Shown one piece after another: positions 1-61,597 of a stretch of DNA of 64,000 nt. The DNA lies in the NCBI GenBank assembly GCA_029939715.1, contig JAOZSJ010000003.1, positions 1,880 to 65,879 on the forward strand, written 5' to 3'. The notes under the pieces were generated by a model, which saw only the letters and a list, made by a program, of their open reading frames with translations, was not told where the DNA came from and made no database searches. This DNA comes from Desulfobacterales bacterium (lineage in GTDB: Bacteria; Desulfobacterota; Desulfobacteria; Desulfobacterales; 4572-123). Position 1 is the stretch's first letter. The number at the start of each line of letters is the position of its first letter. Both the position numbers and the translations under genes were made by a program.

Positions 1-1080
1 AATATCATCAGCCCCGCTGCCGCCAAGGATAATGTCATCACCGGCATTGCCGTATATCACATCATCTCCGGTCGCAATTGCAAAAGCTCTGATAATGTCA
101 ACAGCACCGCTGCCGTCTATCGCAACCTGGCCGTTATCACCCACCAGGATGTCATTGCCGGAATCTCCGGTTATTTCATCACCTCCGGCCCCGCCGAAGA
201 TAATGTCATCATCCTCGTTACCGGCCAGGGTATCATTGCCGCCGGCCGGTGAATCAATATTCAGAGTCCTTACTGTCCGGTCGCCCCATTTATCGATAAC
301 GGCGATCCCAACGTCGCCGATTATCGTATCTTTGCCGCTGTTACCGGTTATGCAGTCATCCCCGCTGCCGCCGAAAATAATATCGTTGCCGGCATCTCCG
401 GTTATGCTATCGTTGCCGTCGTCAAGCCGGCCAAGGGCTTTAGCAACAAAGCCGTCATCCTCGCTGAAAAGAACAGTTCCGTCATCTCCAAAAAGGAGAT
501 CCATACCATCACCGCCCCGGATCAAATCGTCTCCGGCCTGCCCGTAAACTATGTCATCCCCGCTCCCGGCCCGGATCACATCATAAGTTCCGATTGCATC
601 GTCGGTGACGGAGACTTGAGTTGCATATCCACCTTCCAGGCGATCGGCATCCGGTTCAATGATTCCACCATCTCCCAAAATCACATCATCTCCCTCACCA
701 CCTGTCAGGGTATCGGCTCCGGTGTCGCCGATAATGACGTCATCCCCTTCATGTCCTGCGATCTCGTCCTCATCATCGCCGCCAAAAAGAAAATCGTTGC
801 CCATGCCGCCGGAAATAAAATCCCCTCTGCCGTTTTCAGAACCGGCGGATGCAGCGCTGACAAGGTTTTCAACAGATTTTTCAACAATCCTGTCACCGTC
901 AAAGATGGTTATGAAATCATCTCCGAATACAACCTCCCCGGCATCACCGAAAAGCATCATGTTCTCTGTCCAGTTTTCACTTTCAACGGTGCCGATCAGG
1001 TCATTCCCGTCTCCGCCGAAGACAACGGCAAGCCCGTTTTCATTTTCGCCGTCATCTTCAAGAATACAGGTGTCATCCCC
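1..1080 (-). repeat. RTX-type Ca-binding nonapeptide repeats running off the window edge
   Basis: Hand translation of 1-69 gives GDDVIYGNAGDDIILGGSGADDI. Hand translation of 661-831 gives GRGDFISGGMGNDFLFGGDDEDEIAGHEGDDVIIGDTGADTLTGGEGDDVILGDGGI. Confidence 0.85.
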
Positions 1081-4000
1081 CTGATTCAGCCACACAAAGG
1101 TTATATCCTCTGCCTGAAGGCCGTATATGTACACGATATCGTCGGCCTTGCCGGCAAGGATATGAATGCCGCCGTCAAAATTGCCGTCGGCATCCCAGGT
1201 AATCACCGCCGGCGCCAGGCCGGTAATACTGCCGTGTTCTATTTCAGCCAAGGTGTCTGCATCGTCATCACCGGCATCACTGATATTCAGCATATGCCGT
1301 CCCTCTCCGGCATGGATAGTCAAATCCCCGGTAATCAGATCAAGGCTGCCGTTTTCAAGACGGGTATCAGAGGAGATATTGAAGATCTCGTTTCCGTCGT
1401 TGCCGCTGATGGTTGTAACGGCAGTCGTTCCTGTTACATTAAAAATGTCATTTCCCGAACCCAGTTCAATATCCAGGGTCTCGATGCCGTAATATACAAT
1501 GCCGTGGGCCATGGCCGTGATCTTGACCGTTCCGATCATGTCCGCGGAAGTATCGATGAAATCGATAGATAGATCTTTACAGCTCCCCATGAATGTAATC
1601 CGGTATACAGGCCCAAGAGAGGTAATCACGATATTTTTTGTGTGGGGCAGATCATCATGCGCATTATTGGGATTCAAGATGGGATCAAGGGCCGCAAGAA
1701 TATCTTCTGCTCCCGCATCAACGGAAATTTTCTCCGTCCACAAATCCATTGTTCCGTCATTGACAACTCCCCGGACATGCAGTCTGTAGGTACCCCGGGC
1801 CGCTTCAACCGAAAGGATCTGGGCCGTACTCAGATAAGGCCGGTTCGTTCCGTCGTGAAGCGTGCCGGTTTTTACAATAACCGAAGCATTCAAAGCGGGT
1901 ACCAGAGCTGTCGTATGGATATCCTCGGCCCATTTGATCTGAGCAAAATCATTGCCTGCCAGTTCACCGCCGAAGAGAATCGTAAAATTTGTATAAACAT
2001 CGGTTTCCAGATTAACCTGAATACTGTCGGAACCGTACAGCGCCCTGAGTTGAAATGCGATCTCATCTGCCGTCATGCCGTAATCCAGCAGCAGGGTTGC
2101 AAATCCGTAATATCGCGTGATCCTGTCGGTATCCGAAAGGCCCGATTCCCTGCCGCAGCCTTCAGCCGACAGGAGATAACTGCCCGAGGCCGCCTGGACA
2201 TACACCGTCTGAACCTCGGCCACGGACGGCATATCCAGCCCCGTCAACGTGGTCTGCGTCAGTGTGCCGATATCATCGGTTGTGTCATTGCCGTCATCGA
2301 CAAACAGTTCATCTTCACCTTCGCCCCCGGCAATTGTAAGCAGTGCCGCGATACGGTCCACGTATTGATCCTGGCTGCCCACATTGATCGTATCACTGCC
2401 AATGCCTGTATCAACGAGGGTATAACCGGAAACCGATTGAATATAAAGGGTATCGTCTCCATCGGCGCCAAAGACAGTGGTCAGGCCCTCATGGGTGGAT
2501 TCAATGGTCAGATTATCACTGCCGGAGCCCAGTTCAAGGTTCATCTCCTCCATATTGGCATAACGGATTCCGCCGGGAACCGGCCTGTCTCCGATCATGG
2601 TATCAGGCCCCATGCCGAAACCGTAAAGGCTGCTTTCGGTCAGGGTGCCTTCATCATTGGCCGGGCTGTTTCCGTTGTAGATGTTCAACGTATCCACCTG
2701 GTCTGCTTCATCCACCCTTACATTGGGATTTACCGGAGTATAAAAATAGGTATTACTACAGGCCACATAGCCGGTATCGATCCTCAGGACGGCGGAAAAG
2801 CCATCTCCGTTTACATTGGTGATTACGATATTGCTGCTGTTCTGTCCGGATTCGGCCGTATATCCATTGGCGTAATCCAGCTTGCCCGCCAGCCTGGAGG
2901 CCATTGACTCAAGGTCATCATCTGTTTTAACCGTACAGCCGTACTCTTCACCGTCGAGCACCATTGTCCATATCTCGCCCCTTATGACATTACCGCTCAG
3001 ACTGAAAGAGAGCTGTTCATCATTGCCGTCTTCATCCGTACTTGAATCCAGTTCTGTTTCGCTGACAGGCTCCAGCGTTATCGAAAAATCATTTCCGTCT
3101 GTATTCCTGATAGCAATTTCGCTGTCGCGGGCATCCGCTGCAAAACCGTCAATATCGCTTAACTGATCTGCCAGGGCCAAAGCCACGGTTTCAAGGGTCT
3201 CGGTGATGCCGCCTGCCGTGTAAAATGCGGCCGGTCCGGTTTCATCATTTATAAATATCCGCCAGGTCTCACCTGCGGCAGCATCACCGGTGAGCGTCAC
3301 CGTTCTGGCTACAAACAGATCGTTTACATCGATATCAATACCGGCCGCTGTAAAGGCATCTTCCCAGGATGTAGTAAATATTACGGTATCACCGATCACC
3401 GAGGCCGCCTGCATGACAATCCCCCGGGCCGGGCCGGCTGTGAGGACAAATTCATAGGGATTGTCGTTCATGCGGGGATCAAAGCCATCCATGCGGCCCT
3501 GCTCCGGATCGATGTACCAGGCGCTGGTATCGGTCAATGTCGCCTGCTCCTCACCATCGGCATTAACAATGGTCCCGGCGGTCAGGATATAACCGTCAGG
3601 CACATACCAGTTGGTTTCTCCGGGCAGGGTGAAGGGATCATTTAAAAACTTTTCCTCGCTGACCTGTATGCCGCCGTCGATGGCAAGGGGCCCCCGGATG
3701 CTGTTGATCCGTTCATTCATTGCAGGGAAAACCCGGGCATCACTTCCATCTACAACGTCGTCATCAATTCCCGAAACAAGGATCGTCTGGGGAAGATTCC
3801 AGTTTTGTGTGGTAAACACTACCTGGGGGATGACGGTCAAAAAGCCCGTACCTGCTGAATCAACCCGGGCATGAACTGTAAACAGCACCGGTTCGTCAAG
3901 CTGGTAGGTACTGACGGTCAGTGTATCGGCAGCCGTATCAGGTGTTGCCGAGTACCGGTTCAGGGCACCGGCCAGGCCGATGGCCACATCTTCTATGGTA

Positions 4001-7000
4001 TCATTTTCCTTTACCGTATAATTATAAGAGACGCTGTCTAATATAATGATCCAGGTATCCCCCGCTTTAACAGGGCCGTTCAGGTCAATGGTTTGAGCAT
4101 CGGCATCAAAACTGCTGAAGGAGCCTGCCGGTACGATATTGTAAGACAGGTTCATGTCAATACCCGACAGACTGGTGAGCACAACTGTGCGATCCTGTGA
4201 ACCGGCGGTCAGATCATTTCCGGACACCGCGTTTATAAGGGCGGCGAAACTGCCTGCAACGCTTTGTGCAGTGTCGTCTGTATCAATGACATACAGATAC
4301 TCGATGCCGTCTATCGTCACTGTCCATTGTTCACCGGCAACCACATCCGCCAGCAGTTCCACTGAGACCGAAGCCACTGCGGAAGCATCGACCTCACCCG
4401 ATCCCGTGGGGGTAACTGCACATGCCAGGGAGAACACCTCTCCTGCTTCACTGGTTACGGTGATGGTGTCGGCATCTGTATCATAAACCGCTGTAAAGCC
4501 TTCGACTGCATCCAGAAGAGATGCCAGCCGATCCCCTGCGGTATCCAGTTCCAGCGAATCTCCATTTGCCCCGCCCACATAAACATATTCATTTCCGTCC
4601 AGGGTCAGAGTCCATGTTTCATCCGCGCGTACCGGGCCGCTTAGAAAAATTTCCTTGATCCATTTTGTATCGGTGCCGAGGACTTCTCCGCTGCCTGCGG
4701 AAGATACCGTGCAGTACATGTCGAAATAATTTCCATTGAAGCTGGAAATTGTAATGATGCGCCCCTCGTATCCTGCAATAAAGCCATCCTCGGCATCCAT
4801 CAGGCCTGCCAGAATTGCCGCGATCTCCTCAAGTGTCTCGCCGGCGGTTACCGTGTGGCTGTAATCTTTACCGTCCAATGTTGCTGTCCAGTTTTCACCG
4901 GCAAACACCGGACCTGTCAGGTCAAGAGTCCGGGTCATCACTGCAAGGCGATTTACGACCACGGCATCTTCAAGGTCCGAAACAATCATGCATTGAATGT
5001 CGGCAGAGCTCAATCCATCTATATAAAAAGTAATTTCAGAACCATCTGAGCTTGCGACGCCATCGGGCTGCCGTGTTATAATTTCCGCCAGGCGTGTAAT
5101 GACGGCATCGATATCATCACCTGCCTGCACTTCATAGGCATAGGCAACCTGGTCCAGCATAATCGTCCAGATATCTCCGGGAATAACGGGCCCGTCAAAT
5201 TCGATCTTTGCCTGCGGAGTTGCCACATCCACCTGGACAGCTTCATTTTCACCGAAATTTGCATCCGGATCAAAGGCCAGGTCGGAGTTATAGGTCCGGG
5301 TCACCCGGGGAACAACATCTACGGCCACATCGCTTTCAGGCTGGAGCGTCAATACTATGTCATAGCTGTCCGTGACCGGGTTATAACCGGGGAATTCATC
5401 TTCCATCAGATAGGTTATGATAAAACGGCTCTCATCGGCTGAAAGAGTCTCCCATTGCCCGGTGCCCGGATCAACGGTATATTTCCTGGTAAGTGGGTCA
5501 TAGCCCATAATTATTGCAGTATTGCCGGTCCCGGGGCCTTCAACCACCGTAATCTGTTTGCCGATGAGTTCTACTGCCTTGGGATTTGTGGCATGCCGCT
5601 GCAGAGAGAGATTCAGTTGATATGAAAGCCCTTGGGCCACACCCTGTTCATAATCCGCATAGGGGATTGAAGGCAACGGCCCGGGTTCCATATAATGCAC
5701 CTGACTTCCGAGGCGGATGATGTAAAAACCGGCCCGGTCAAGATCAAACTCCAAAAATGGATCGTTGATGGAAAGGCTGCCTGCGTCAGGTACTGAAGGA
5801 TATACACCATTGAGAGGCTCCACCGGTGAAAGCACACCGCTTGAACCCATCAGATCATCAAAGGTTCGGCCCTCAATATCTGTTCCAGCGTCTACTCTGA
5901 ACAGATCAACACAGGGCCTTACGGTATAGACAACAGGAACCGGGATCATGCCTATCCCCGTATTATAATCATATATGGAGTAGCCCGTGAGATAGTTGCC
6001 CCTGTCAATATCTATAACGCCATGGACGGTTCCGCCGCCCCTTGTCACTTCGATTGTAAACGGTTCTTTTACGCCTTCTTTATCTTCAATAATAATTTTT
6101 TTATTGGAAAGCCGGCCGCCTGTGTTCAATCGGGCACTGTAAGTTGCCGCCGTATCTGCGTTGACAGCATCAACCAGGGCCAGTTTTACACCATACAGAT
6201 TCTTTAAAGGATCGGCCAGATCGGAAGTATTGCAGCTGTATGCCCTGCCGTTTACATAAATGGTCCAGAGCTCATTGGACTGGTAATCACCAAGCAATTT
6301 AATCGCTGCGCTGAAATAGTGCTTCCTGGCGTCAATCACCGATTGATCAGAGTCTATATCAAGGGCATCATGCAGACTGTGGTTGACTGAACTGATAAAA
6401 ACAGGTTCACCGTCGTCGGTATTGACGGTGATGGTACTGCCACCGTCCACATTTGGATTAAAACCGGAAAGGATTTCATCCGCCAGCCCCAGGGCCACGT
6501 CATTCATCGAGGTGTCTCCGGCAGCTACCTCATAGGCATCAGGATCGGCATTTTCGATGGTGACGCTCCAGAGATCGTGCGCTTCAACGGCAGCCCCGTT
6601 GTCCAGAACGATATCGCTGTACCAGAACAATAGCGGTGTACCGGACATTTCACTGCCACCTTCAATATCGGCTGCTGAGATATCACCGCTCAGGTCAATG
6701 CCCGCCGTATCATGATAGATCACCATGAACACTTCATTGCCGGCATTGCTGAAAATATGTGTGTCATAACCGGTGATACTGCCGTCAAGACCGTCCGCAG
6801 CATCGGATATATCCGCATCTGACGCGGATACGGTGTAATCATAGGTATTGACGTCCACGGTAACGATCCAGTCCTGTCCCTCATAAACTTCGTCCGTGTC
6901 CGTGTCGCCCAGCCGCAATGTTCCGGCATAACCGGTTTCACTGACAGCTCCCGAAGAAGATGCGGCGGTAATGTTCGCTGCCGTCAGCACGAGTGGCCCG

Positions 7001-10000
7001 CTGCAGGTAATACCGATGGTGCCGCCGGCAGTATCGGCAACAGGCGAGTATCCGCCGTCGATATCCCCGGCAAGGCCGGTGACTGCACTTGCAAGGGTGG
7101 AGCCATCGGTTTCATTGGCGGTATAATCAAACGACGAACCATCCATGTTTACAGCAAAAGTTTCACCCTCGGTAACATCGCCCCCAAGCAAAATGCTAAA
7201 GGTACTGGCAATCCGGATCTCATCGGTTCCAGCCGGGCTTGCATCTTCAGTTCGACTGTCCGCACTTAAGGCACCAAACGTTCCGGATCGTGAAATCGTT
7301 ATCTGACTGCCGGAAACTGATGTTGCGTACTGTGAAGGCAGGCCGGTTGAAGCGGCTGCCAGTCTGGCCTCAAAACTTGCCGCCACATCCGCCAGACTTG
7401 CATCAGCGGCAAGTGGCGTATGGGAATACTCGATGCCGTCAAGTGTAATGGCCCAGAGGTCATCGTCATCAAAATCTCCGGTCAGGGTAAAGGTTCCGGT
7501 CCAGTCCGTATAATCGATCGTGCTTTCGATATCCGCCTGTTCCACCTCCAGGGCCACTGTGAAGGTATCTTCGGAGCTGTTTTCAATCCTGATCACCCCG
7601 GGCTCATCCACGGTTCCGGGACCCTCCGCCGTGTAGGCGGTATACCGGATCGTGCCGTCGTTTATTTCCTGTGCAATGCCTGCTGCGACATCGTCTGCAG
7701 TGGTATCTTCCGCCGGTACCAGCCAGGAAAATTCATCCGTGCCGCCCAGGGTCAGTTTCCATGTCTGACCTTCATACACATCACCTTCAAACTCCACCAG
7801 GACAGATCGACGGTCCAGGCTTATGGTATCGGCCACCGGCGCGGCTATGATTTCAAAATCAATTGTAAAATCATTCCCGCGACTGTTTGCAATACTGAGT
7901 GCATGATTCGAGCCGGCCGCCACTTGTGCAGAATAGGGCCAATGGATCTCGGCGGCCAGGCCCGTGGCCACATCAGCCAGGGTTGTATTACCGCCCGGCA
8001 CAATATACTCGAAGGTATGCGGAGCTCCGGCTGAAGTATCATCCAGGGTCACCTGCCATGTTTCACCCTTTTTGACATCACCGCTTAATTCCAGCTGCAT
8101 TTCCACCCATTGAATACTCTCTATCACGGCTTCCGTCTGAACCGGTGTACCGCTGATATCCGCCCTGCCCGCGGGAGATGGGCCCTGCAGGGAAAAACTG
8201 ATGGTAAATCCGGCTGTATCAGATAGTGTCAGGGTGTCGTCTCCGGACCGAAGCGGTAAATAGTCATGATATGGATGATAATTTTCAATTTCATTGATAA
8301 GACCGTCTACAATGCCTTCAGGTGTCGGCGAATAACCGTTTTCTCCGGCGGTAACCGCATAGGGCGTATCGTTCAGTGTCAGGGTCCAGATCTCACCCTG
8401 GATCACCGGCCCTGAAATCTTAATCCGCGATTCGGTGAATTGAATCAGCGGCGTTCCGGTACCTGCAGGTGTTGTTACATCCGTTCTTCTGACCACAACT
8501 CCGGCATCCTGCCCCAGGTGGCTTACCCTGTCCACCCGGACACCGTTTTCATTGACGATAATTAAACTTCCGCCATCTGAAAAAACCTGAACCGGTTCAT
8601 CGGCAGCCGGGTTGTCATCATACTGTGCTGTCAGTACCGATGCCAGGCCGCCGGCCACATCGGCCGGCACTAAGTCGGTTTCCTGCACCTGGTAAGAGTA
8701 ATCCACGGCATTGAGCCGTATAGTCCAGACATCTCCGCCGGAAATCGTATCACTGTCATCAAGCAGATTCACCCTTACCCGGGTGTAATAGGTCTCATCG
8801 TCCGTGATTGTCCCGTTGCTTAAAATATCAGCCGCCTCCGGGACAAGCATCTCCTGTGTTACTTCAAACAGATAATAATCCCATGTGCCGTCTCCATAGC
8901 CCTGGATCTTGGTATAAGGCGTGTCGGAATTGATGGAATCGCCGTTACCGATCCGGGTGTCATAAAAAGTATACCAGTAGTAGGTATCCTCTATATCCTG
9001 AATATTCGCATAGCCCTCATTTTCGGAAACCGGATCAGGAGCAAACAAGAATGCATCCACATCGTGGTTTTCCATGGACACCTGCAGTTCATAGTCGGTG
9101 CCGGAGGGCAGGCCAAACCCAAGCCAGTTGTCTATTTCAAGATAATAATCACCCGCCTCGTAAAATGTGTATTCCATGTAATCATCAAGCCAGGTCGTGC
9201 TGCCTTCTCCACCCGTTGACGGGTTGGACCAGCCCTGCCCCTGTTTGACCAGGCGTGGTGTCCGGCTCCCGTCTTCATTGTCGATCATTTCATACAGTTT
9301 GAAACGGCTTGCCCATAAAATAGAATCGGTGTACTCAAACCCGTGATCCATATCAAAAACAGCATCAATGCCGGGAGAACCGCTGTCCAGGGCATCCCGG
9401 ATCATTCGCTCTGTTATGGAAAAGGCGTAGAAGGCGGACTCATCGTTTCCCTCGCCCTTGATGGTCAGGTGCGGAATGGCCGTGGACATATTGATTTCAT
9501 TATCAAAATTCATACCCCACATGCCCATGTCAATATTCTGGGCCGTATAGGCAGAGGTGTTGTATCGGGTGCCGTATATGACGGAAGTGCCGAAATCCGC
9601 CTCAAACACAGTGTCGGAATCCACAGACCGCACCTGTCCTGTTCCAAGTACCACCAGGCTGGTGGGCTCGGCTACAGTGGTCGTTCCCCCGGGCTCGGTT
9701 ACAAGGACACCGCCCGTGGCATCATCGGCAATCATGACATCCACGAACGACAGATGGAGGGTCTGGTTATTTACACCGGCCGTATAGGAATACTCTGTGC
9801 CGTTCAGTTTTACCGCCCAGATATTCCCGATATTTACAGGACCCTGAAGCTGGATTGTAATCCGGGTGAAATGGTTCGAAGGTTCCGGGTCTGTCAGGAT
9901 AACGGCATAATCCTGCGGGGCCGCGGTGATGGTAAAGCTGCTTCCATCAGCGCGGCTGAGAATGATTGTATCTGGATGGGTTGAATCAACATATGCGACA

Positions 10001-13000
10001 TAGTTTGAATCTCTGTTAATTTTTTCGGCCAGACCCCCGGCAATATCTTCAAGGGTATCTATACCTGTCACAACATACTCAAAAACATCGGTTGAATCGA
10101 TTGTAATAGACCAGGCATCGCCGGCCAGAACCGGACCATCGAGTTCAACAGATGCGATAAAGGCGGTATCAAAATCGGTCAGGACCGCACCCTGCAGCCT
10201 TGACTCGTCAAATGTAAACGTCGGGCCCCGTATGGTTATCGATGTGTTAGGATCGGAACTGCTGATGTCGGCTGTAAAATTTTCATACACGTTGCCCTGG
10301 ATCTTTTCAGACAGGCCATGGGCCGCATCTGCCGGCCCCAGGTTGAAATATGCTGCATACTCAGCTTCGCTTATATCGTGCGTAATCCGTGAGTAGTGTA
10401 TTCCCTCCACCTCATATCCGGCAGCATCGGGGGCAGCCTTCACATAGATATCCCGGGGGGTGTTCCAGTCTGCCTGGTTGAATTCCAGGCTCAAGATATC
10501 GGAAAAACCGGTGGATGCGGATGTTGACACCTGGGACTGGCTGTCGGTTTCAACAGTAATTTCAACACTGTCTGCTACAGCCCGGGTCAGTACGACCCTG
10601 TACCTGTCACTGCCCGTATAAAGGCCGGTATCGGCAAACTGATCATCTTCGCCAATCACCGTACCGGTTGTATGCTGGATCACCAGGACATCCGCGGTAT
10701 CATTGTCTATTACCTGAGCCGTCACGCCTATAACCGCCAGGCCGTCATATTCGCCGCCGTCATCCGGAATTGCCCCCTGAATAACCGTATGCTGGATATT
10801 ATAGTACCGCCGGCCTTCGGCAATCAGGTCTTCGGGAGCCGACACGGTCACGGTCTGGGGAATAAACCAGTTGGTCCGGTCAAACAGAAATGTGATACCG
10901 TCGCTGCTGCCGTTGAGTGCTATACCGGCACTGCCCGCCTTTTCCTCGGACTCGGTGGGCCTTGCGGGCGTTGCCGTAACGCGTACGCTCTCTACTGGTG
11001 ACCGGGTCAGAACGATCTGGTACCGGGATTGAACAAGAGTTGCAAATCCGGCGGAAGTATCCTCAAAAACCCGAATCGGACCCTCAACCATATCAACGAT
11101 GATACCTGCCTCGTCATTATCCACTACATTGGCGGAAACATCAGGGATGAACAGACCGTCAAAAATGGGATCATCGCTGAAGATGGTATGATCGATCAAC
11201 CCGCTGTGTCCTTCAAGGTCATTGCTCACAACGGTGATTGGATCGCCGTCGGTTCCTCCTGCAATATTAAAGGTGTCGCTGCCAAGTCCGCCTACAAGCT
11301 GGGTCTCCACATGCTCACTGGTGCCGGCCACATAGAACCGGTCGTTACCTTCCAGGGCATCCACCACGACCTTTTCAATGCCGTTATAGGTAACAAACAG
11401 GCCGCATCCCCAGACACCTTGATCCGTCACAACAATATCATCTCCAAACTCGGTGCCCACGATTGTCAGCGTATCATACCCGTCGCCGCCGGCGACCCGC
11501 ACCGGCGCGTTAACAACATAGGAGATAAAATCCGCGCCCTGCCCCCCGTTGATATTCGTATACGGGGCTTTGGGATCATTGGGGTCGACCTTTACAAAAG
11601 CCCTTACCCTGAAGGTATCGTCATCTTCCTCTCCGTAGAGGTACAACTCAGCCTTGTTGGCATATACTGTAAAACCGTCGTTTCCGATTCCGCCGTATAA
11701 GATTGTCGGAAAACTGATACCGTTGCTGAGATAGCCACGGGTGGTATGGGTGGTTTCAAACCAGTCATCTTCGGTGAGCCCGGCAGATCCATCCCGCGGA
11801 GACTTGAAGACCTGGCCTATCTGAAAGATATCGTCCCCGGCATCACCGTAAATAATGGTGGCGGAACTGTTGTCATCCAGGACAAAGGTATCATCTCCAT
11901 CCCGGCCGAAAATTCTCAGGCTGCCGTTTATGTCCCCGTTATAATTGACCCTCTCAATGGATCCGTTTTCAACTGGATTGCGAAATTCATCAAGTTCGAT
12001 GCAGGCAACCATATTCGGACGCATGAGAAAATAATCAGCCCTGTTCGTGCCGAAAATATCCAGCAGGTCGACATTCAGGTCATTTTCAGGAGTCTGGTCA
12101 TATACATCGATCAATGCCGACCCCTCGCCGGCCAGGCCTACCTGGTAATAATCACCGCCCGCCTGACCATGAAGGGTCAACGTGCCGCCGATACCGTTTT
12201 CATAGGTCTGATTCCCGGAAATATTATAGTTGGCCCGCAGGATGTCATTGTTATCGCCGGCAAAAATTTCGGTGGCCCCTGCAATACTGCTTATGTTGAT
12301 CGTGTCATCACCGCTCCCGGTATGCAGGGTTGTGGACCAGGCATGGGTGCTTTCGACAAAAAGGTTGTCCTCACAGGAGCCGAGCCATACTTCCAGATCT
12401 TCGGCTCCAAAGTAGAAAACCGCCCCTTCCATGCCAAAACCCGTAAAGGATGTTTCCGTCAGAACTCCTGTCTGGCCCGCGGAATCATCAGCTCCGGAAT
12501 TATCAATCCGGATATCATCCGCTCCCGTGCCGGTATTGACGGAAAGCGTGTAGCGGATATCCGCCAGTGTGTTTCCAAAAGGAAGCCCCGGTGACACGTC
12601 AACTTCATTTCCGATAAGAACTGAGTCGTCTCCTGTATTTGTGTTGACGGAACTATCTGTATTCTCCGCGATACTGAGTATATTAAAGGTATCACTGCCG
12701 GTTCCAAGGGCAATGTTCAGATCCTCAAGATTCCGATATCCGATTCCCGATGCCATATCAAGACCGGCAAGGAAACTGCTGCTCAACGTTCCGGTATTAT
12801 CGTTTGTATCCCCTGAATCATCGATATCCACCCGGTCGGTACCCGATCCGCCGTCAATATCAAGCAGGGCGTCTATACCGTCCACCCAGGGGTACCGGTT
12901 CTCATTTTCGTCCACCAGGATGTCAGTCACATCCGTCGTATCATCACCACCGCCGGTATTAACGGCAGTGAATCCTGAAATCGTCCTCACGTAAACAGCG

Positions 13001-16000
13001 TCATCGCCGGCAGTCGTATTGACTACGGACTGCCCTGTATGCGTGCTAATCAGGTCAATCGTGTCACTGCCGCTGCCGGTGGTGAATTCGACATATTCGA
13101 GATCGTCATACAGGATGTCAAAAGAGATGCCGCCACTGCTTGCAGCCGCGATACGGTAAAATGAATATTCAGTCTGAACCTGATCCGCATTTGTATAGTA
13201 GGCCTGCTCCCCGCCGAAGTATAAAACAGGCTCGTTGCCAAGATAATATCTCGCATCTCCGGCACTGTATGTTGCAGGGCTCCAGCTTTCGATGAGGGCC
13301 GGATCACCGCCCGGGGCAAGTTCATAGACGATATCGCCCCTGCCGTGAAAAACAGGATCACCGGCTTTGTCAATGATCGTATCGGCAGTAAAAAGTATCA
13401 CATTGTCGTCATCATCGAGGCGGATGCTGCCGTAGATGTCAAGGACTACCTGGCCGATTGCAACCTGTTCATCCCCGTAGTAGTATGCCGTCTCGCCGCC
13501 TTCATATGTCAGATGATTTCCATTCCGGTCCAGCACCGGGTCACGGCGGTTATGAATCATTGCCTCGCCTGCAAGGTGTACAAACAGACTGCCGTCGCCG
13601 TTAAAAACCTGATTGCCCTGCTCATCAAGTACCGGCTCTCCGCCGAAATAACGGACAACATCACCTGCAAGATGCAAAACAGGATCGCCGGCCATGTGCA
13701 CCAGCGCATCGCCGGCCTGATGCAGAACGCGGTTACCGAACATATCCCGGACAACCTCGCCGGTAAAAGGATTCAAAACAGGATCACCGGCCTGGTAAAC
13801 TTCTCCGGTATAGGGATCGATCTGCGCGTCGCTTTCATAAAAAAGCGGCTCAAGTGTTTCAAAATCTACCTTCTGTTCTCCGCCGAAATACAACCTGGGA
13901 TCGGCATCTATGTCACCCGCGTAATACAGCGGAAGTCCCTGGGCATCATACCGGTCCATGCCGGTTTCACAAGTGTCAAAGGATACGGAAAAATCGTCAC
14001 CTTGCTCTGCGCCGTTAATAATAAGGCTGTCGGCATAATCACCGGTTGTGATACGGTAATCCCTTGCAACAGTAAAATCCGACTTCTGGGTACGAAAAAC
14101 GGGAATAACCGACGGGAGGTTAGCCTGGTCCGCTTCATCATCATACGCGTCAAGGGTTTTGTAACCGTTTGAATTGACATATAAGAAATCTCCGTTTTCA
14201 AAATCGGTTGCAAATGACGGGTTGCCGGTGTTTAGGAAAACTTTCCGAAACTCACCGTCAAGATATAAAGGACTGCCGGAGTGATCATCGGTAACCGTTA
14301 TTACCGGCACTCCGGTATCGGTGAACACCGGATTTCCATCAACGTCAAAATAGAGCGGCAGCCCCCCGGCAGTTACAGTATCGATGGCCGGCACACCCGT
14401 ATCAACAGTTGTTTCTTCATTGTTTTCATCAATGAAAAGCAGATTACCATCCCCATCCGTCCTTTGAATCCCTCTATTTTGGACACCGGTTTCCTGCACC
14501 CCCTTTTCATGGACAAGATCCTCATAGACAGCGCCATTGGGATCGATGACAACCGTATAAATTGCAAGTCTGTCGGTACCACTGCCGTCATCTTCTTCAA
14601 AAAGGATAGGGGCCAGCTCAGGCAGCTCATAATAAACCCTTTTACCTGCGGTATCGGTAAAATAAAGAGTTCCGGTGGGGGCTGAGTGAATAAATGCATC
14701 GGGAACATTATTCAGCAGTTCATAATACTCATCCAGCTCCATGGAAAGAAATTGTGCATGCTCGGCCGCGGTAAGATGGCTGACTCTTTCATCGATATGA
14801 TCATCGCCGAAAAATAGAATCCGGGCTGCCAGGTTATCCAGCATGCCGTTATCGGAAACATGGACACTGTCTTCACCGCTGCCGCCAAGAATTATGGTCT
14901 GATCACCTGTCTGTTCGATAAAAATCTCGTCATTGCCGGGTCCTGCGGCAATGAGCATCTCCATGCCTGCAAGCATCTCGCCATCGGATACAACATCCCG
15001 CCCATTGATATAGGCATAAGTGTCGGCCCGGGCCACTGCAAAAGAGTCATTCCCGTCGGCAAGCCTTATCTGCAGATCTTCAATGCCCTCCACTTCGATG
15101 CCGAAATACCTGACAGTATCCACGCCCCGGCCATCGGGGAAACCGATCCCCTCAAGGCTCAAAAATGTATCATACAGGTACTTGCCGTCCTCATCGATTC
15201 CCTGTTCAAAAAGAGGATTGCCGTACTGGTCTTCACCGATCTGCTCCATACGGGAGGTGATTCTGTTGGCCAGGAGACCGGCCTCCGACGACCCCTCCTG
15301 GTTATGGATAATGAGTCTGTCACCACTTGTTTCATACTGGTCCCCGCCATCTATCTTGAGGCGCCCGAGAATATTGGAAACATTATTATTCCCTTCGGCC
15401 CGAAAGGCAAACGGCGGCGGGTCCACCGTCACTTCAGGGGGCTGCACCGTCTTTGATCTGGGCTCGAGCCGGCCGATATAACAGGTGAGTTCCAGATCAT
15501 GTACCGTTATTTCAACATATTCTTTGGACCAGAACCAGAAAGAGTCGTATTTGAATCGCCAGGAAATACCGGCATAGGCCATATCCGACGATGTAAATGC
15601 AAAATAGGGGTATGCATTCGAGATGCTCGCCATCAGGGCGCTGAAATAATGTTCCGCCGCCGCGTCCGGGGTATTAAAGGTAAAATCGGCAAGCTCAATC
15701 TCAAAGGTATAGCTTGCCAGGGACCATGTCATCGGCGTGTATACAAGTTCGGGCGGCAGATCGATTTCAAAGGCCGGCGGCTGATAGGTATAGGCCGGCG
15801 GGTCAAAAACAATCGGCGGCGGGTTGCCGCCCACATGAATCGTGTCATCTCCGCTGCCGCCCACAACCGTGGTTTCCACATTTTCATCGGAACTCAGGAT
15901 ATAGATTTCATCGGGTCCGCCGCCCCCGTCAACTTCAATGGATTCGATATTCGAAAAGTTGGTGATCCTGCCGGCACCGGCAATATAGGTATTGGTAATC

Positions 16001-19000
16001 ACGAACGTATCGCCAATGGGAGTACCGATCACAACGATGGTATCGATGCCCGGGCCGCCGTTTATCTCCACCGGCGCATTCTGCAGGTAGTCGTAGCGGT
16101 TGACACCGGCACCGCCGAAAAGGGCCGCCAGGTTTGTCACTTCATCAGGATTGTCCGCGTTCTCCTTGAGCACCAGGAAGGTTTTAAGCAAAAATTTATC
16201 ATTTCCCGAGCCGCCGTGCAGATACAGCTTGGCCCGGTTGTGATTCACCTCCATGCGGTCGTTCTGGCCCTGCCCCATGACAAAAAGAGGTGCACTGTTG
16301 CCGTTTGTCATATTCTGAGTATCCGCCACGGGAACGCCTTCGGGATATTCCAGGGTCCGGTTGCCCGTGTCCGGTATCAGGGGAACAGTACCGATGACAA
16401 TTTCGTCATCACCGCTGCCCATATTGATGATGGTCACAACTGCCGTGTCATTGGACAGGAACAGATCATTACCGGCGCGGCTGTTGACGGAAACACGGTC
16501 AATACGCCGGAAGGTAATGATGTTGCTTTCATCGGCAGATCTGCTTTCAGCGGTAATCCGGCCGGTACGGAAGGCACCTGAGCCTGCGGCATCCAGTGTC
16601 ATGATATCGGATTTGGATGTTCCGTTCACAATCAGTTCATCAAAACCGGAATCACCGGAATCGTCAATGCTGTATCGGGTTCCGCCGTCAGGGCTGATGT
16701 TTATGATAATGTATTCCCGCAGTCCCCCCTGCCCGCTTTCATTGCCCAGGTTGTCGATACTCACGGGGCCGGTCCAGGCACCGGCGGAAACAAAGGCACT
16801 GCCCACATAGATGGTATTATCCATATCGCCGACAACGATAACATTGCAGCTGTTGCCGCCGGTTATAAACGCTTCTTCAAAAATATTATCGATATCTTCG
16901 AAAATTGCACCTGCGGCAAAATGATCACCGGTATCTCTTAATGTAAGATCGGGATCATCCTCCCTGACCCGTTCGGCCAGGTCAAAGGCCGTATCAGGGG
17001 CCTGTTTCAGAAAACTGCCGCCGGTATCACCCACTATGGTGCCGGTAACAAACCCTGTATCAAAAAGTGACATATCCCGGTCCTGAGCCTCAACCAGAAT
17101 ATCATATCCGCCTTCATCGATGAATATATCAAGACCGTCGCCGCCGGTCACCCTGTCATTGCCCTCGCCGCTGTGCAGGATGTCGTTATAGGGTGTACCG
17201 ACCAGTTCATCATTATCTCCGCCGCTGTGCAGTTCCAGTGCCGTAAGATCGGGGTAGTGCAGATTATCCGAACCGTCGGGGTCACCCATTCCCCCGAAAT
17301 TAAGAATATCATCCCCGGCGCCGGTCCAAATTTCCAGAGCGTCCCCTTCAGACCGGACAGAACCGGAAAGTGCAAATTCCATTACCCCCACACGTGAAAT
17401 CAGGACATCCTGCATCCAGGAGGAGCCGCCGGAACCTTCACCGGCATTTCCCAAGCGTCCCATGAAACTGTCATCGCCTGCACTTCCCATGACAATCAGT
17501 TTATCTGCAAAATTGTCGTCATGGAAAACAATATCAGGCACCTCAACGCTGAATCGATCTTCTGTTGTAGAGCTGTCTCCATCCAGATCTTCGATCACCG
17601 TTTTTGTGCCTGCAACCTCCATATGCTTTCCAAAATCAACAGAGAGTTTGGTCATACCTGATCCGACAAGATCCTGAGCCGTGATCACATCGGCACCTTC
17701 GCCGGCGTCAATGGCCAGTTCCCGGACCCCTCTTGCATAAATGTTTCCGCTGTTTAGAAATTCAACCAGGACCTGGTTTAATCCCGGTGTGGAAACCCTG
17801 AGATCATCATTTCCAGAAGTACCCGTGATGACCAGATAATTATCATCGGCATCGGTATCATCCGCATCCACCGTGCTTCCAAGGTCGCCGGCCCCGAGCC
17901 GGATCAGGTCATTTCCGCTGCCGCTTGTAATGGTATTGATGCCGCCGCCGCCGGTTATTTCATCGTCACCGGTGCCGGCATTAATAATATCGTCTCCAGT
18001 GCTGCCCGTGATCTGATCGTTGCCGATACCGCCAAAAAGGCCGGCAAGGCCTGAGCCGGTGTGAATAATGTAATCATCGCCCGCATCACCGTTGATCACA
18101 ACAGCACCGGAACATGAGGTTTCCAGATAATCGGCTCCGCTTCCGCCGTTGATGACGGCACTGGAATCGCCGTTATAGATAAGAATGTCCTCACCATCGC
18201 CGCCGTTTAATTCCACCGGGACAAGAACGCCTTTCCTGATAAAAATACTGTCATTACCTGATCCTGCATCAGCATGGATACCCGTTACATGCTCATAGGT
18301 CCGGCTGCGGCCCATGGCACTTACCTTTATGGTGGCATCCGAAGCGGTCCCCCCCACCTGCTCCACGACATAGGCTTCATCTGGCTCATCTTCAGCCAGG
18401 TTCCGGTACTGCCCACGGGAGCCCATATTCAAATACAGTTCGCCGCCGCTCCAGCTTCTTGCCGCATCCTGAGAAGTGCCGGCATCACCGGCCAGCCAGA
18501 CGGGCCTGGGCAGTTCGAGGTAGCCGATGGTAAAACGGGCCGTCTTTTTGACTTTAACAAACAGGATCTTGATCTTGACGGTGACACTCAGCTGGATCTT
18601 GACCCGGCCGGTTCCCTGGGCACTGAAGGAAAAGCCGAGATCCAGACCGGCCAGGGTAATGCCAAACACCTTGGCCTTGACATGGGCCGATCCGGAAAGT
18701 TCAAAACGATAATATGAATTCCCGGTGGCATCGACAATGCTTTCGGATACAATATGGAAATGAAATCCACCGGAAAGACCGAAGGAACTGGAACCAAGGG
18801 TAAAATCTCCGTTCAGCCGGATATCAAAATTCCCTCTCGAATCAAGGTATCCGCTGCTGTCAAGGGTGGCCAGCCCGAAAAAACTGATGTCCGCATGAAA
18901 ATCAAAACGCCACTGTCCTCCACTCACCAAGACACTGAAGCCTGCATCGAATTTCAGGATCTTGAGGATCTCAACGTGACCTGAAAGCGACAGGTAAAAT

Positions 19001-22000
19001 GAGTTGGCGTCCACTCCCAGGCGACGGGTATTTGTGCTGTTAATGCTCAGCTTGCCGCTGCCCTCGATATCAAATACGGAGGAATTGGCCCCGGCATAAA
19101 CATCCAGGTAAATGACTATACCCGGATCGCTGCCCCCGTAAACACCGGCGCCGCCGCTTGCCCGGAAGCTAAGTCCGCCGATGGAAAATGACAATGAAAA
19201 TTCAAGGGTGATTTCAGATTCCGCAATGACGATATCGAGAGTGCCGCTGCCCCTGGCAAAGCCCAGAAAATCAATACTGCCATCAATGTGGATACGGAGT
19301 CCCGGTGCAATCGAGTTGCTCCCGATGGTCTGCACGCTCCCGGTGGTATTGATTTCAAGCCAGGCATTGGCATAAAATGCCAGGCCGATATCTTCTCCAA
19401 ATGCCAGATCAAGTTCAAGCTGGACATACATGACCAGGCCGGCACTGTTGATCCGCATACCGCCTTGTACCTGTATCGTTCCGATGGGATCCAGAGACAA
19501 AGCCGCATCCGCGGTGATCACGAGTTCAGTCGGGGTGATTCTGAATAAAAAGCTTCCGTCAAAAACAAGGAGCTCCGCCACATTCAGATATCCTGCCATA
19601 CTCAGTTCGATGCCTTCGGTGATATTGATATCAACTGTTTTTTCACCGATGGAGCCGTCATCGAGAATGGCCGGGATGGAAACATTTTGCCAGGCGTTGG
19701 CATAGGTGTTGATCTCCAGCAGGAAATCACCGTCCAGTGTGATGCCCGGGATCACGTTGCTGTCAAGGGCCAGATGAACGTATCCGATAACCCCTGCGCC
19801 CGGATGATCCGGATCATCATTTTCAAGAAAAACCTTGAACAGAAGATCGCCTGAAAATGTGCCTAAAAATGATATATCGGTGCTGACCGTACCCATGACA
19901 CTCAGGTAGGTACTGCCGGTGCCGGTACCGGCGGCAATCTGGATATAACCGGCAAGTGTAATCACATCACCGATGACAAGCTCTGCCTTGATGGTGGCCA
20001 CAAGGTAGATTTCAGGTGCCCGGGCCTCATTTTTCCTGCCGTCCAGGCCTGGAGACGACTTGTATATCTCTATGGTTGTGGGATCGCCCGGTTCGAGCAG
20101 CGGCAGAAAGGACTGGGGAATATCAAAACTCTGATCCTGCATGGTTGTATTGAACATGACCGACACCGAACCCGATGCCCGGAACAGATTACCGATATCC
20201 GGCAGCCCGATGCCCGCCGAGGCCCCGACATGGAACATACCGGCCACGCCGGGGTTATCTCCGGATTGAAAACCGGTTACAACCACGAAAAGTCCCGTGG
20301 CCTCGCCAAATGTGATGGCCGCATCTCCGGCCCCCATGGAAAGTTCGGCAGTGGCAAATATCTCGAACCGGTCAGGGTTGATTTTTAGAAAAAACCCGCC
20401 GTTCATCCGGAACAGGTCCGTATCCAGCCCGGGAGGCCGCAGCCTGACCTGACCTAATATCTCAACTGAAAATGTAAGGGGTGCAAGAACATATGTGCGG
20501 GTAAGGTCTTCGCCGTTTTCTCCAAAACCCGGCAGCGTGATGCTTTCGGTCTTTTCATAGAGCGTTGTGTTAATCTGCAATGTTCCGCTGCCGAACATGA
20601 AAATCCCGATCTGTTCGAGAAAATCAAAATTGGTCTGGACCGTCATGACGCCCCAGAACTGGGGTCCTTCGGTGAACAAATTATTCAGGTCCAGAACAAA
20701 TTTGCCGGCAGAGGCGCCCAGAGTGCCGAGTTTGAACACCTTGAGTTCTCCGCCCAGGGTCAGTTCAAAGACTTTCCTGGCGATATCGATTTCAAGGACG
20801 ACCTGCCCGGTCAATGACATCAGGGGTTCATCGAGAAAATCTGCGGCCCGCAGCTCAATACCGCCTCCGATCTCGATAAAAAATGATGCGGCCTGGGTAA
20901 TAACCACCATGGATTCGGACGAGGCAATGCCGTAATTACCTGCATCGTCCATCCAGCTTTTCTCGGTAAAATGGATGGTGAGTATGCCGGTGTCGAACTG
21001 GTCTTCGAATGAATAACGGAAGGTATTTGTGCCTGCCAGTTCACCCGGTTGGGTAGGGGCCCCGTTTACTCTGACGTTTTCACCGTTCGCACCGGTAAGT
21101 GTAAATTCAGCACCTGGATCCACGATGGATGAAAAATCCAGCGAATTTCCATTAACCGGAGTAAACGTGATTTCAATATATCCGCGGTCGTTAAGGACTT
21201 CACGGTCAACAGTCTCGCCGGCCATGGGGTCAGCCGGGGATGCCCGCGCTTCATCAACCCGGAATGATTCCGTTTCAGACAGGTTCACCATGCCGCTGGT
21301 ATCGGCCCATGCACCGGCACTGTATTCAACCGTATATTCACCGGCATTAAGGGCAACCTCAAAAAAGTATCGGTATCTGTCCGTCAAAAAATCGTCTTCG
21401 ACGTTTTCGCCCGTTGAAATAATGATCCGTTCAGGACTCCCCCTTATAGGGACGATATTGCCGTCTGAATCCTTTACAACCAGTTCATCGCCGTCAATAG
21501 TATTATGATCAATCAGAAAGCCGTCGGTGGCCTTGAAGAGGATCGAGATAAAGCCTGCTGCATTGATTACATCTTTTCCGATAACACTGCCGTTACCAGG
21601 ATCAGCCAGATCGGCCGTACTGCCCGCGGCGGTAAACATCATGGAAGATGAAATGTTGGATATACCGGCATCATCACACCATGTATTGTCAATAAACTGA
21701 ACAGTCACTTCACCGGGCAGAAATTCGCCTGTAAAATAATACCGGAAAGTATTGTTCAGATCTTCGGGGATTTCAGTCAGATCCGCATAGGCGTCATCAA
21801 CATCAACCACCTTGTCTACCTGCCCCTGGATGGAAACGCCGGAGGCACCCAGCCCGCTGACGCCAAATTCAGGACTCGAGTCAAAAATCGAATCCGTATC
21901 AAGGCTCTGTCCCGAACTCGGGAAAAATGTGACATCGAGATATCCGCGGTTGTTCAGCTGATGAATATCGATGCTTGATTTTCTGCCCGGATTGTTCAAA

Positions 22001-51019: not shown

Positions 51020-51693
51020 TCACAGCTCCCTAATAAGAGATCTGGCCGTCTTCCAGAGCCCTCTCCTTTCTTCAATTAACTCGCGCAGTAATCGCACCCT
51101 GTTTTCAGTTGACCCGCCATATTCATCCGTCCGATTGTTGGTTTTAGAAGATAAAAAAGGTGAAATCAAATAGTTGTGGGTTGCATACACATAAATGATA
51201 TCAAAGCCGGCGGTTTTGGCGCGCCTGGCAGCAGCCACATGCCATCTCCGAATTTTTTCTAATCGGATTTCCCCATAATACTGCTTTGAACCGGGTCATT
51301 GAATACGGCCGGTCTGCTGTATGCTGCCAACGGGGCCTCACGCGAATATAAATTCGCAACCTGATGCCCGCCATGCCATGGTTCAACGCCTGCCAGTGAT
51401 CCATGTTCATGCACCTTTTCAACCATTAAGGCGTTTGCTTTAATGTCTTCTTCATCCCAGAGACAGGCATGCGGATACGGTATATCTTCTGAAGTAGGAT
51501 GGATAGAACAGTATTCCGTATTAACGACACCCCAGCCCCCTTCCGCCTTCATTCCCCGCATCGCAGCGAGTGTATTGGGCATTCTGTAACCCATGCCGGT
51601 GGCATGAGGCACCTGATAAAATCTGTTTTTTGCTGTGACCGGACCTATTTTTACCGGTTCAAATAATATATCAAAGTAGGGACTGCGAGTCAT
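51020..51693 (-). pseudogene. Frameshifted and 3'-truncated Old-Yellow-Enzyme-family flavoprotein gene, closest in my recollection to the N-terminal domain of trimethylamine/dimethylamine dehydrogenase
   Basis: ATG at 51693 with an AAGGGAG RBS 5 nt upstream. [36 protein letters not shown]...AEGGWGVVNTEYCSIHP parallels the TMADH N-terminus ([23 protein letters not shown]...KAEGGWAALNTEYCSI). That frame stops at 51259-51261 (..MGKSD*). The homology then continues in another frame (LEKIRRWHVAAARRAKTAGFDIIYVYATHNYL...NNRTDEYGGSTENR) and ends at 51020, around residue 225 of an expected >600 aa. Confidence 0.75.
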
Positions 51694-51776
51694 GAAAACT
51701 CCCTTGTATTTATTAATGTTATGTACTTTCACCTGTTTTGATATCTTTGACAAATGTGGCGGAACCATCGACATTA

Positions 51777-53207: not shown

Positions 53208-53332
53208 AATTACCTCTTTAAAAATGCTAATATTGTAGTGTGACTAAATTTAAGGAATGTTTCCTGCCTGGTTTGAAATTCATAACCTGATGTTTTTTGA
53301 TAAAAAGCACTTACATATCCTTCTTTATTCTT

Positions 53333-54469: not shown

Positions 54470-54504
54470 ATTTTTCTCCTTTTCCTTTAAAGATAAGCTT
54501 TTGG

Positions 54505-54580
54505 CTTTTAGCAGTTAGCCATTAGCTAAATGAATCCTTTGTCATTTCGAGCTTGAAAGCCAATAGCTAACAGCTAAAAG
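54505..54580 (-). repeat. Imperfect 23-bp inverted repeat (CTTTTAGCAGTTAGCCATTAGCT ... AGCCAATAGCTAACAGCTAAAAG) forming a long stem-loop 5 nt after the stop of the MttB gene at 54585
   Basis: The arms lie at 54505-54527 and 54558-54580 and pair at 20 of 23 positions by my alignment. No U tract follows on the minus-strand RNA. Confidence 0.55.
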
Positions 54581-54584
54581 TTAA

Positions 54585-56018: not shown

Positions 56019-56054
56019 AAATATTCCCCAATAATAGATACAATTTTTTCTTGA

Positions 56055-57422: not shown

Positions 57423-57446
57423 ATAAAAATTCCCCCGGTATTCCAG

Positions 57447-58574: not shown

Positions 58575-58591
58575 ATTAAATTTTTCCTGTC

Positions 58592-60288: not shown

Positions 60289-60344
60289 TTAATTTTCTCC
60301 TGGAAATAAAGCCCTTAAAAACCTGAAGCCTGCAGTAAAATTGA

Positions 60345-60390
60345 TGCGGCGGACAACAGAAAGTTCCTGTCCGCCGCACCGGTTTTTTTT
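60345..60390. terminator. Perfect 11-bp stem hairpin (TGCGGCGGACA / TGTCCGCCGCA, 12-nt loop) flanked by T8 on the plus strand; a possible intra-operon attenuator or bidirectional terminator between the binding-protein and permease genes
   Basis: The stems lie at 60345-60355 and 60368-60378, with the T run at 60383-60390. On the minus-strand transcript the hairpin is followed only by UCAAUUUUAC. Confidence 0.5.
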
Positions 60391-60415
60391 GTTTCATCAA
60401 TACGGATTAAAATGC

Positions 60416-61543: not shown

Positions 61544-61567
61544 TGTTGCCTCCAAGTTTATGGTTAA

Positions 61568-61597
61568 ATTAAAGTGGGACATGTCCATCATTGTCAA
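61568..61597 (-). promoter_or_regulatory. Candidate sigma-70 promoter of the transporter operon (-35 TTGACA, 18-bp spacer, -10 TTTAAT) with a 10-bp palindrome GGACATGTCC in the spacer
   Basis: Minus-strand sense reads TTGACAatgatGGACATGTCCcacTTTAATttaaccataaacttGGAGGcaacaATG. The -35 is at 61597-61592, the -10 at 61573-61568 and the palindrome at 61577-61586. Confidence 0.4.

Follow-up and report, generated by a model that had tools for sequence, protein, structure and literature searches.

The window analysed here, a stretch of 64,000 nucleotides (nt) of contig JAOZSJ010000003.1, belongs to the metagenome-assembled genome (MAG) of Desulfobacteraceae bacterium 4572_123 from Guaymas Basin, and most of it is taken up by one giant gene on the minus strand. 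We read window positions 1-1080, at the downstream end of the visible part of this gene, as a predicted calcium-binding RTX beta-roll near the C-terminus of a giant surface protein of the LEPR-XLL family, with export driven by a SecA-like motor as part of the same reading, to which we assign a probability of about 0.55. For a giant adhesin-like protein to have RTX repeats towards its end is ordinary in itself; what is new is a conserved candidate export system, which in relatives of the giant is encoded next to the 3' end of the gene. Coordinates of the features in the window are collected in Table 1.

A giant open reading frame

The minus strand of window 1-50811 constitutes a single stop-free frame of 16,937 codons, the sole long frame in that interval, and the frame is still open at position 1, as had been stated in the initial annotation of this DNA, which was made from the sequence alone. 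The ATG listed in Table 1 is the gene-caller start common to three public assemblies. On the NCBI contig JAPOGU010000244.1 the gene runs off the end at 17,004 amino acids (aa), so that the protein comprises at least 17,004 aa; the ENA contig (scaffold_31) ends 16,864 aa into the protein, and in the JGI version an interruption follows aa 3,449. The product is among the largest bacterial proteins. It is enriched in Gly, Asp, Ala, Ser and Thr and nearly lacks Cys. Several open reading frames (ORFs) of 300-440 aa that lie within the gene on the plus strand (253-1569, for example) were set aside as shadow frames of a compositionally biased gene.

Table 1. Features of the 64,000-nt window, listed from its left edge, and the evidence for each
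Feature	Position	Strand	Evidence and remarks
C-terminal RTX beta-roll region, cut by window edge	1..1080	minus	Pfam, NCBIfam, motif scan, AlphaFold2 model, Foldseek
Giant ORF	1..50781	minus	ATG at 50781, open at position 1; at least 16,927 aa in the window
Internal RTX-like block (aa 10841-10984)	17830..18260	minus	Translation, motif scan; Pfam HemolysinCabind E 5.3e-7
About 60 divergent tandem repeats of ~122 aa (aa ~600-8200)	26182..48984	minus	Self-BLAST of 200-aa chunks, offset histogram
FG-GAP / VCBS-type repeats, integrin-like beta-propeller kind	30046..30813	minus	Pfam FG-GAP_3 E 2.3e-22, 5 stretches; FG-GAP E 4.3e-14
LEPR-XLL domain (residues 12-32, FELENLEPRILLSADPLL)	50686..50748	minus	NCBIfam NF012209, 35.2 bits against a cut-off of 17
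Oxidored_FMN gene (TMADH/OYE-like), decayed	51020..51780	minus	Pfam, ORF list; fragments match profile positions 2-115 and 156-211 of 342
Methylated-amine or polyamine utilisation cluster	51777-61606	minus	Two MttB, saccharopine dehydrogenase, DAO-type FAD oxidoreductase, PotABCD-like importer
BTAD/TPR (SARP-like) regulator, 603 aa	62144-63955	minus	Most AT-rich part of the window, GC 0.38

The C-terminal RTX region

The RTX nonapeptides that the initial annotation had placed at 1-1080 are borne out: both of the strings it quoted are encoded on the minus strand (GGMGNDFLFGGDDEDEIAGHEGDDVIIGDTGADTLTGGEGDDVIL at 676-810, GNAGDDIILGGSGADDI at 1-51), and Pfam, NCBIfam and a structural model agree. 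Canonical nonapeptides do extend to the window edge, as had been claimed, but they do not form a single long array. They occur in separate runs, of five units at 676-810, of three units each at 490-570, 319-399 and 142-222, and of two units at 1-51, where the last run is cut. These belong to a higher-order repeat of ~57 aa, in which 3-4 nonapeptides are combined with a 'GDxGxV...' beta-hairpin excursion (each uncut run comprising 3-5 nonapeptides), a unit that is very clear in relatives such as the protein P0001 (P and L numbers are our labels for proteins and loci found in searches). The Pfam family HemolysinCabind (PF00353) was matched with an E value of 1.3e-12 by six stretches in the last 4,037 aa, the best of them at window 322-423; the NCBIfam RTX_toxin model was matched with an E value of 1.3e-14, and serralysin models match as well. 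The protein has 39 matches to a loose nonapeptide pattern, compared with 6.9 +/- 2.5 in shuffled sequences.

An AlphaFold2 model of window 1-1080, built from a 20-sequence alignment, reached a mean predicted local distance difference test (pLDDT) score of 80.2 and a predicted template modelling (pTM) score of 0.83. Its fold, with three-residue strands every nine residues, is that of a parallel beta-roll with beta-hairpin excursions. The best Foldseek match in the PDB was the RTX domain of CyaA (7usl_C, E 2e-7; also 7rah_E and 6sus), followed by an RTX lipase, by MpAFP (the Ca2+-dependent antifreeze beta-helix of Marinomonas) and by serralysins. On the evidence of this model, the C-terminal region is a true RTX beta-roll, for which Ca2+ binding is predicted. 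Database searches also returned generic RTX proteins (Shimia Hint-domain proteins, and those of Pirellulaceae and Micavibrio; L003-L012 and L014-L020), which have the nonapeptides alone in common with the giant and were discarded as uninformative.

N-terminus and repetitive body

Both marks of LEPR-XLL giants are found in the protein, namely an N-terminal motif scoring above the curated cut-off and an extreme length with a repetitive body. The motif is followed by an acidic linker, probably disordered. The earlier statement that an N-terminal signal peptide is absent holds, since the highest 19-residue Kyte-Doolittle mean within the first 80 residues is 1.19 and no Sec signal peptide was found, although the presence of the LEPR-XLL domain means that the N-terminus is not featureless. 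Hydropathy revealed no transmembrane segment anywhere in the visible protein. A Pfam and NCBIfam scan of the first 4,500 aa gave no domain besides LEPR-XLL, and no [TPA]AAG sequence, indicative of a LapG site and a LapA-type retention module, occurs in the first 400 aa. Neither BIg nor cadherin repeats as defined by Pfam were found in the giant, nor were PEP-CTERM-like or other membrane anchors, autotransporter domains or type IX secretion system domains found in its visible part.

The copies of the ~122-aa repeat show 27-52% pairwise identity at the protein level and match no Pfam or NCBIfam model. The second tight block of repeats, noted previously at 17,830-18,260, is indeed RTX-like, with a period of 19 residues at first (GGxGxDxL...VIN) and then a period of 9, in about five nonapeptides. 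It is one of several RTX-like blocks scattered over aa ~10,860-13,180, the best HemolysinCabind stretch among them lying at window 17125-17226. By its build, which combines 122-aa repeats, an FG-GAP propeller and RTX-like blocks, the giant is a predicted extended extracellular fibre or adhesin.

The C-terminal RTX zone is where two of the public assemblies end, no more than ~230 nt from window position 1, and short contigs from relatives (L037-L044) break in the same region. Tandem repeats within the window were considered as the cause of these breaks and rejected, as none were detected at the DNA level in window 1-6000, the sole stretch scanned; the cause must consequently lie beyond the window, and near-identical units probably occur just past position 1. 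The concurrence of two assembly breaks in one repeat region, with a third assembly ending inside the gene and the JGI version interrupted early, could also be taken to mean that the 50.8-kilobase (kb) ORF is a chimera of collapsed repeats and that the RTX stretch at its edge derives from another gene. We consider this extremely improbable. An uninterrupted series of 16,937 sense codons is impossible by chance, the start and the neighbouring genes are common to three independent assemblies, and relatives of 9,009, 9,402 and 17,800 aa have the same architecture, one of them in a finished genome. Collapse is in addition made unlikely by the low identity among the repeats and by the lack of DNA tandem repeats in the stretch scanned.

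Relatives and a conserved C-terminal tail

Scans of contigs in genome and metagenome collections with the last 800 aa of the visible protein returned relatives at 28-40% identity and no extension past position 1. In a protein database that appears to list proteins up to about 1,400 aa, the best matches to the same segment were fragments of other giants (34-40% identity), three of which include a stop codon: P0003 (from locus L027), P0005 (L028) and P0008 (L029). The last 2,000 aa in the window are colinear with the ORF at L027, non-RTX modules included (37% identity over 850 aa, E 2e-127). Colinearity also extends to giants at L029 (E 3e-59), L028, L001, L034 and L030, with L027 and L029 the best of the set.

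Beyond the 57-aa units, these relatives continue with a 'GxLDLIAxTQFxL' element and a variable linker, which consists of TLPDGT repeats in some and is acidic and rich in Pro in others, and end in a conserved tail. The tail occupies the ~45 aa before the stop codon, is strongly basic, and reads [LIM]AG[LSM]xGW, then 12-20 residues, then D[RP]xxFxxL...RRFxxW; it can be aligned in eight independent giants. No Pfam or NCBIfam model covers it, those for target domains of the type I secretion system (T1SS) included. The initial annotation had anticipated an uncleaved secretion signal at the C-terminus, as in T1SS substrates. An ordinary T1SS signal, of the kind that is not conserved in sequence, is not supported by the relatives with a stop codon, which end in the conserved basic tail. 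A profile built from three tail sequences retrieved 55 cluster representatives among 1.84 billion proteins, and the match was nearly always at the extreme C-terminus (residues 3931-3991 of 3991 in one case and 6393-6438 of 6439 in another). The proteins bearing it include sizes of 3,991, 4,961, 5,365 and 6,439 aa. The last of these, P0408, is complete and has a LEPR-XLL N-terminus (30 bits) together with the tail, which indicates that the N-terminal motif and the tail are properties of the same kind of protein.

Other arrangements were seen at C-termini. The giants at L029 and L030 have a linker motif, 'F(G/A)EAFxxARxxG...(F/T)FIWNGxVYDAGL', between the RTX cap and the terminal tail. At L002 (Verrucomicrobiota, ORF end 16621) and L013 (ORF end 14302) a different conserved C-terminal domain is shared (...NLETNGGxNNxPDA...GEFNxYxVPFS...GEPFGExGL...), which suggests that giants with RTX repeats have a second terminus specific to a family. 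The RTX proteins at L003, L004 and L010 (Pirellulaceae) stop right after the last nonapeptide, in the sequence ...GGxGDD(Q/E)EIQ.

A linked cluster with a SecA paralogue

At L027, L028 and L029 the stop codon of the giant gene is followed, on the same strand, by five genes in constant order. The first encodes a DUF3467 protein of ~100 aa and starts ~15-500 nt past the stop, on the same strand in every case. The second product (~615 aa, here GAF-MFP) is predicted to cross the membrane once, with a GAF domain in the cytoplasm and a domain of the membrane fusion protein (MFP) or HlyD type in the periplasm; it scored 99.5 bits with the RND_mfp model, above the cut-off, and gave a partial match to type_I_hlyD. 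The third (~715 aa, HExxH/M50-MFP) begins with a PqqD-like segment and combines an intramembrane HExxH protease of six helices with an MFP domain in the periplasm; in the N-terminal 410 aa of a 714-aa example, the match to a model of daptide-type HExxH intramembrane metalloproteases covered positions 1-371 of 379, and the PqqD matches were weak. The fourth is a SecA paralogue of ~665 aa, and the fifth a small secreted MFP of ~250 aa.

The SecA paralogue aligns to residues 17-607 alone of Bacillus subtilis SecA. The aligned part takes in the two nucleotide-binding domains, the preprotein cross-linking domain and the beginning of the scaffold helix; wing domain, two-helix finger and C-terminal tail are missing. 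With none of the SecA and SecA2 equivalog models does the paralogue reach the cut-off. Five members of this short-SecA family were taken without regard to their neighbours, and all five proved to lie in the cluster beside a very large gene. In the finished genome of Desulfoluna limicola (L030, AP024488.1) the adjoining giant has 9,009 aa, in Desulfococcus sp. 4484_241 it has 9,402 aa, and in a Thermodesulfobacteriota MAG 17,800 aa; in a Tectomicrobia MAG the cluster accompanies an RHS/cadherin protein that exceeds 3,032 aa, and in a Syntrophaceae MAG the contig ends within the upstream gene.

Partial or rearranged versions of the cluster were found at L001, L006 and L035. Searches with tblastn placed a DUF3467 gene directly past the giant's stop at L001 (Desulfuromonadales) and, at L006 (Oceanospirillaceae), genes for M50-MFP, the SecA-like protein and the small MFP that are convergent on the 3' end of the giant gene. 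A look-up by DUF3467 (L037-L044) added more short contigs with the order tail, two DUF3467 genes and GAF-MFP. Short-read assemblies tend to break in the RTX region, which hides both the tail and the export genes. We found no description of this five-gene set in the searchable literature.

Additional genes occur in some copies. Those at L031 (1222-5291), L034 (12767-18772) and L036 (117-5094) contain a radical S-adenosylmethionine (SAM) enzyme and an O-methyltransferase, together with an uncharacterised protein of ~287 aa and proteins of 374-688 aa with a DUF3467 domain; these hint that the giant, or a peptide, is modified after translation. At L030, a group II intron reverse transcriptase (RVT_1 and GIIM domains, 12819-14096) lies between the genes for the SecA-like protein and the small MFP.

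A candidate export route

From the RTX repeats, the initial annotation had argued for type I secretion, with ABC exporter and MFP genes possibly adjacent. Part of this argument stands. A true beta-roll, the absence of a Sec signal and a diderm host together fit a type I-like export directed by the C-terminus, and MFP-type genes do adjoin the giants of relatives; the ATPase encoded there is SecA-like rather than of the ABC type, and neither a neighbouring HlyB-type exporter nor an ordinary T1SS signal was found in these relatives. We think that the functional intuition behind the annotation is sound: the protein would be exported after translation, with its C-terminus leading, and Ca2+ would drive its folding once outside.

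The giant in the window is likely to end with the same tail, followed by the same cluster. Judged by eight or more relatives, the sequence beyond position 1 should contain a few more 57-aa RTX units, the 'GxLDLIAxTQF' cap, a linker, the ~45-aa tail and a stop codon; the genes expected next would encode DUF3467, GAF-MFP, the fusion of PqqD-like, HExxH and MFP modules, the ~665-aa SecA paralogue and the small secreted MFP. Provided that the same tail and cluster are present here, the chances that the cluster exports the giant appear to us about even. More broadly, we tentatively propose that LEPR-XLL giants may be exported by a previously undescribed envelope-spanning pathway, in which a truncated SecA replaces the ABC transporter and operates with three MFPs, DUF3467 and recognition of the tail. 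An RTX beta-roll followed by a C-terminal signature, the lack of an N-terminal signal and the adjacency of MFP genes conform to the logic of type I secretion. Export would be post-translational and would proceed C-terminus first, as in type I secretion, with the conserved tail as the putative recognition element. The SecA-like ATPase would act as the motor in place of an ABC exporter, the MFP proteins could form a conduit that spans the periplasm and leads to an outer-membrane channel encoded elsewhere, and the RTX beta-roll might serve as a ratchet by folding, driven by Ca2+, on the outside. A terminal signal, possibly the LEPR-XLL leader, may be cleaved off or processed by the HExxH protease module.

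Several observations weigh against this proposal. The tail and cluster of the window's own gene lie beyond position 1 and are predicted from relatives, and the putative functional link between cluster and giant comes from synteny alone. A copy of the cluster from the source organism was not found in three large protein searches and two collection scans; the profile searches among these, with the SecA-like and DUF3467 proteins, gave no sequence from Desulfobacteraceae 4572_123 among the best 120 of at least about 8,000 scored candidates each. A protein that had been a candidate for such a copy, P0279, came from other samples and was dismissed. No outer-membrane component was seen in the related loci. 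L006 carries the cluster yet has a different tail. For DUF3467, the best Foldseek matches were PC4/Sub1 and Pur-alpha (E 0.38), with nothing significant; a SecB-like chaperone had been considered as its identity and was rejected, as there was no PDB sequence match and the AlphaFold2 model (four strands, one helix) reached a pLDDT of 60.7. The possibilities that T1SS genes lie elsewhere in the genome and that the cluster serves a small peptide also count against the proposal and are taken up in turn.

Under a classic T1SS, the giant would carry an uncleaved C-terminal signal and be exported by an HlyB-type ABC exporter, an HlyD-type MFP and TolC, with their genes to the left of the window or at another place in the genome, and the SecA-like cluster would have no bearing on export or be missing here. 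Genes for a T1SS often lie apart from those of their substrates, and such genes elsewhere in this genome are a possibility. The nearest structural matches of the beta-roll (CyaA, RTX lipase, serralysins and MpAFP) are all T1SS substrates, and, like them, the giant has no N-terminal signal. A LEPR-XLL giant of Vibrio with an RTX/serralysin C-terminus was read as a secreted RTX protein (PMC10868602), and in a preprint on Chlorochromatium, LEPRxLL giants without known transport signals were described as flanked by a TolC-like gene. We regard a classic T1SS as a fair but less likely alternative. The 13 kb that precede the giant gene (window 51-64 kb) contain no exporter or other secretion gene, and in about ten related loci no ABC exporter or TolC-family outer-membrane factor (OMF) gene lies within 10 kb of the 3' end. 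Moreover, T1SS signals are poorly conserved, whereas the tail of the relatives is conserved, strongly basic and missed by T1SS target-domain models. RTX repeats alone are no proof of a HlyB/HlyD/TolC route.

A different role for the cluster is suggested by some of its parts. It could be a system for maturation and export of a small peptide, akin to those for ribosomally synthesized and post-translationally modified peptides (RiPPs), that travels on the same island as the giant gene and does not export the giant. The match of the 714-aa protein to the daptide metalloprotease model and its weak PqqD matches are compatible with this role, as are the radical SAM and O-methyltransferase genes within the clusters at L031, L034 and L036; modification genes of this kind, together with a protease that resembles RiPP leader peptidases, mean that the cluster could serve a small peptide. 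Against such a role, the clusters at L027, L029 and L030 have no radical SAM or methyltransferase gene and yet keep the five core genes and the giant, the DUF3467 gene follows the giant's stop closely and on the same strand in every case, and no conserved small precursor-like ORF was found. RiPP systems are also not known to include a SecA-family motor. Hence we hold this alternative to be quite improbable, and return to export of the giant by the SecA-like cluster in the comparisons that follow.

Comparison with known systems

The RTX beta-rolls of T1SS substrates such as CyaA, the lipases and serralysins of Pseudomonas and Serratia, and region IV of MpIBP resemble that of the giant in their GGxGxDxUx nonapeptides, predicted parallel roll, C-terminal position and lack of a Sec signal. 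The giant differs from them in having runs of three to five nonapeptides set in a ~57-aa unit with hairpins, and its relatives differ in the added cap, long linker and basic tail and in having no linked ABC exporter.

Adhesins of the LapA, SiiE, MpIBP and FrhA kind are similar in length, repeats, C-terminal RTX region, absence of a Sec signal and diderm host, and also, as far as the giant's relatives are concerned, in their MFP genes. The GAF sensor attached to one MFP bears a putative resemblance to LapD-type, nucleotide-controlled regulation. In contrast to LapA-type adhesins, the giant has no retention module or LapG site in its first 400 aa and no BIg repeats that Pfam recognises, and has a LEPR-XLL motif instead; it is three to ten times larger, and no ABC or OMF genes of the lapB/lapE type were seen.

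Published LEPR-XLL giants ('LEPR-8K', Cag_663/Cag_665 of Chlorochromatium and a Vibrio protein of ~8,000 aa) share with the giant the motif of ~24 aa and the extreme length, and a C-terminal RTX region has been reported for the Vibrio protein, as is found in the giant of the window. The family is defined by its N-terminal motif alone, without an assigned function or route of export, no transport signal is known from the literature on these giants, and neither the tail nor the SecA-like cluster appears in the literature that we found.

A SecA-family motor has been tied to giant proteins in another setting. Giants of Omnitrophota contain fused SecA_DEAD and preprotein-binding domains without scaffold and wing, and these were suggested to export the giant itself (10.1101/2023.11.21.568195). 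The SecA-fused giants of Omnitrophota and Actinobacteriota (10.1101/2023.11.21.568195) resemble the present case in the association of a giant with a SecA-family motor that lacks scaffold and wing. They differ in that here the SecA paralogue is the product of a separate downstream gene of ~665 codons, accompanied by three MFPs, an HExxH protease and DUF3467, and in that the giant of the window has no transmembrane segments. SecA2 systems of Gram-positive bacteria and mycobacteria are comparable in having a dedicated second SecA paralogue beside genes for large repetitive surface proteins and helpers. The paralogue described here departs from them in scoring under the equivalog cut-offs and in lacking an accompanying SecY2 or Asp gene; it occurs in diderm hosts with MFP-type partners, and its putative cargo has no N-terminal signal peptide.

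The transport of proteins of 1-2 megadaltons across two membranes is little understood in bacteria, and the tail together with the five-gene set provides a concrete candidate; the set is carried by Desulfoluna limicola, a sulfate reducer in culture whose genome is finished. If the proposal is true, the SecA paralogue would represent a new energising module for tripartite, T1SS-like secretion and would establish a tie to the SecA-like domains of the Omnitrophota giants.

Upstream genes and the border of the giant gene

The decayed Oxidored_FMN gene ends 240 nt before the ATG of the giant gene, and GC content drops from 0.52 in the giant gene to 0.38-0.48 upstream, with a step to 0.42-0.48 at this border. 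This suggests that the 50-kb giant gene was inserted into the Oxidored_FMN gene or truncated it. The truncated gene and the step in GC content are the grounds on which we treat the giant gene as a probable insert, with its right-hand border at Oxidored_FMN. Further upstream lies the methylated-amine or polyamine utilisation cluster, whose two MttB-family methyltransferase genes have no in-frame stop and whose ABC importer, of the PotA/B/C/D type, includes the binding protein. For the BTAD/TPR regulator at the far end of the window, public assemblies call a longer product of 726 aa.

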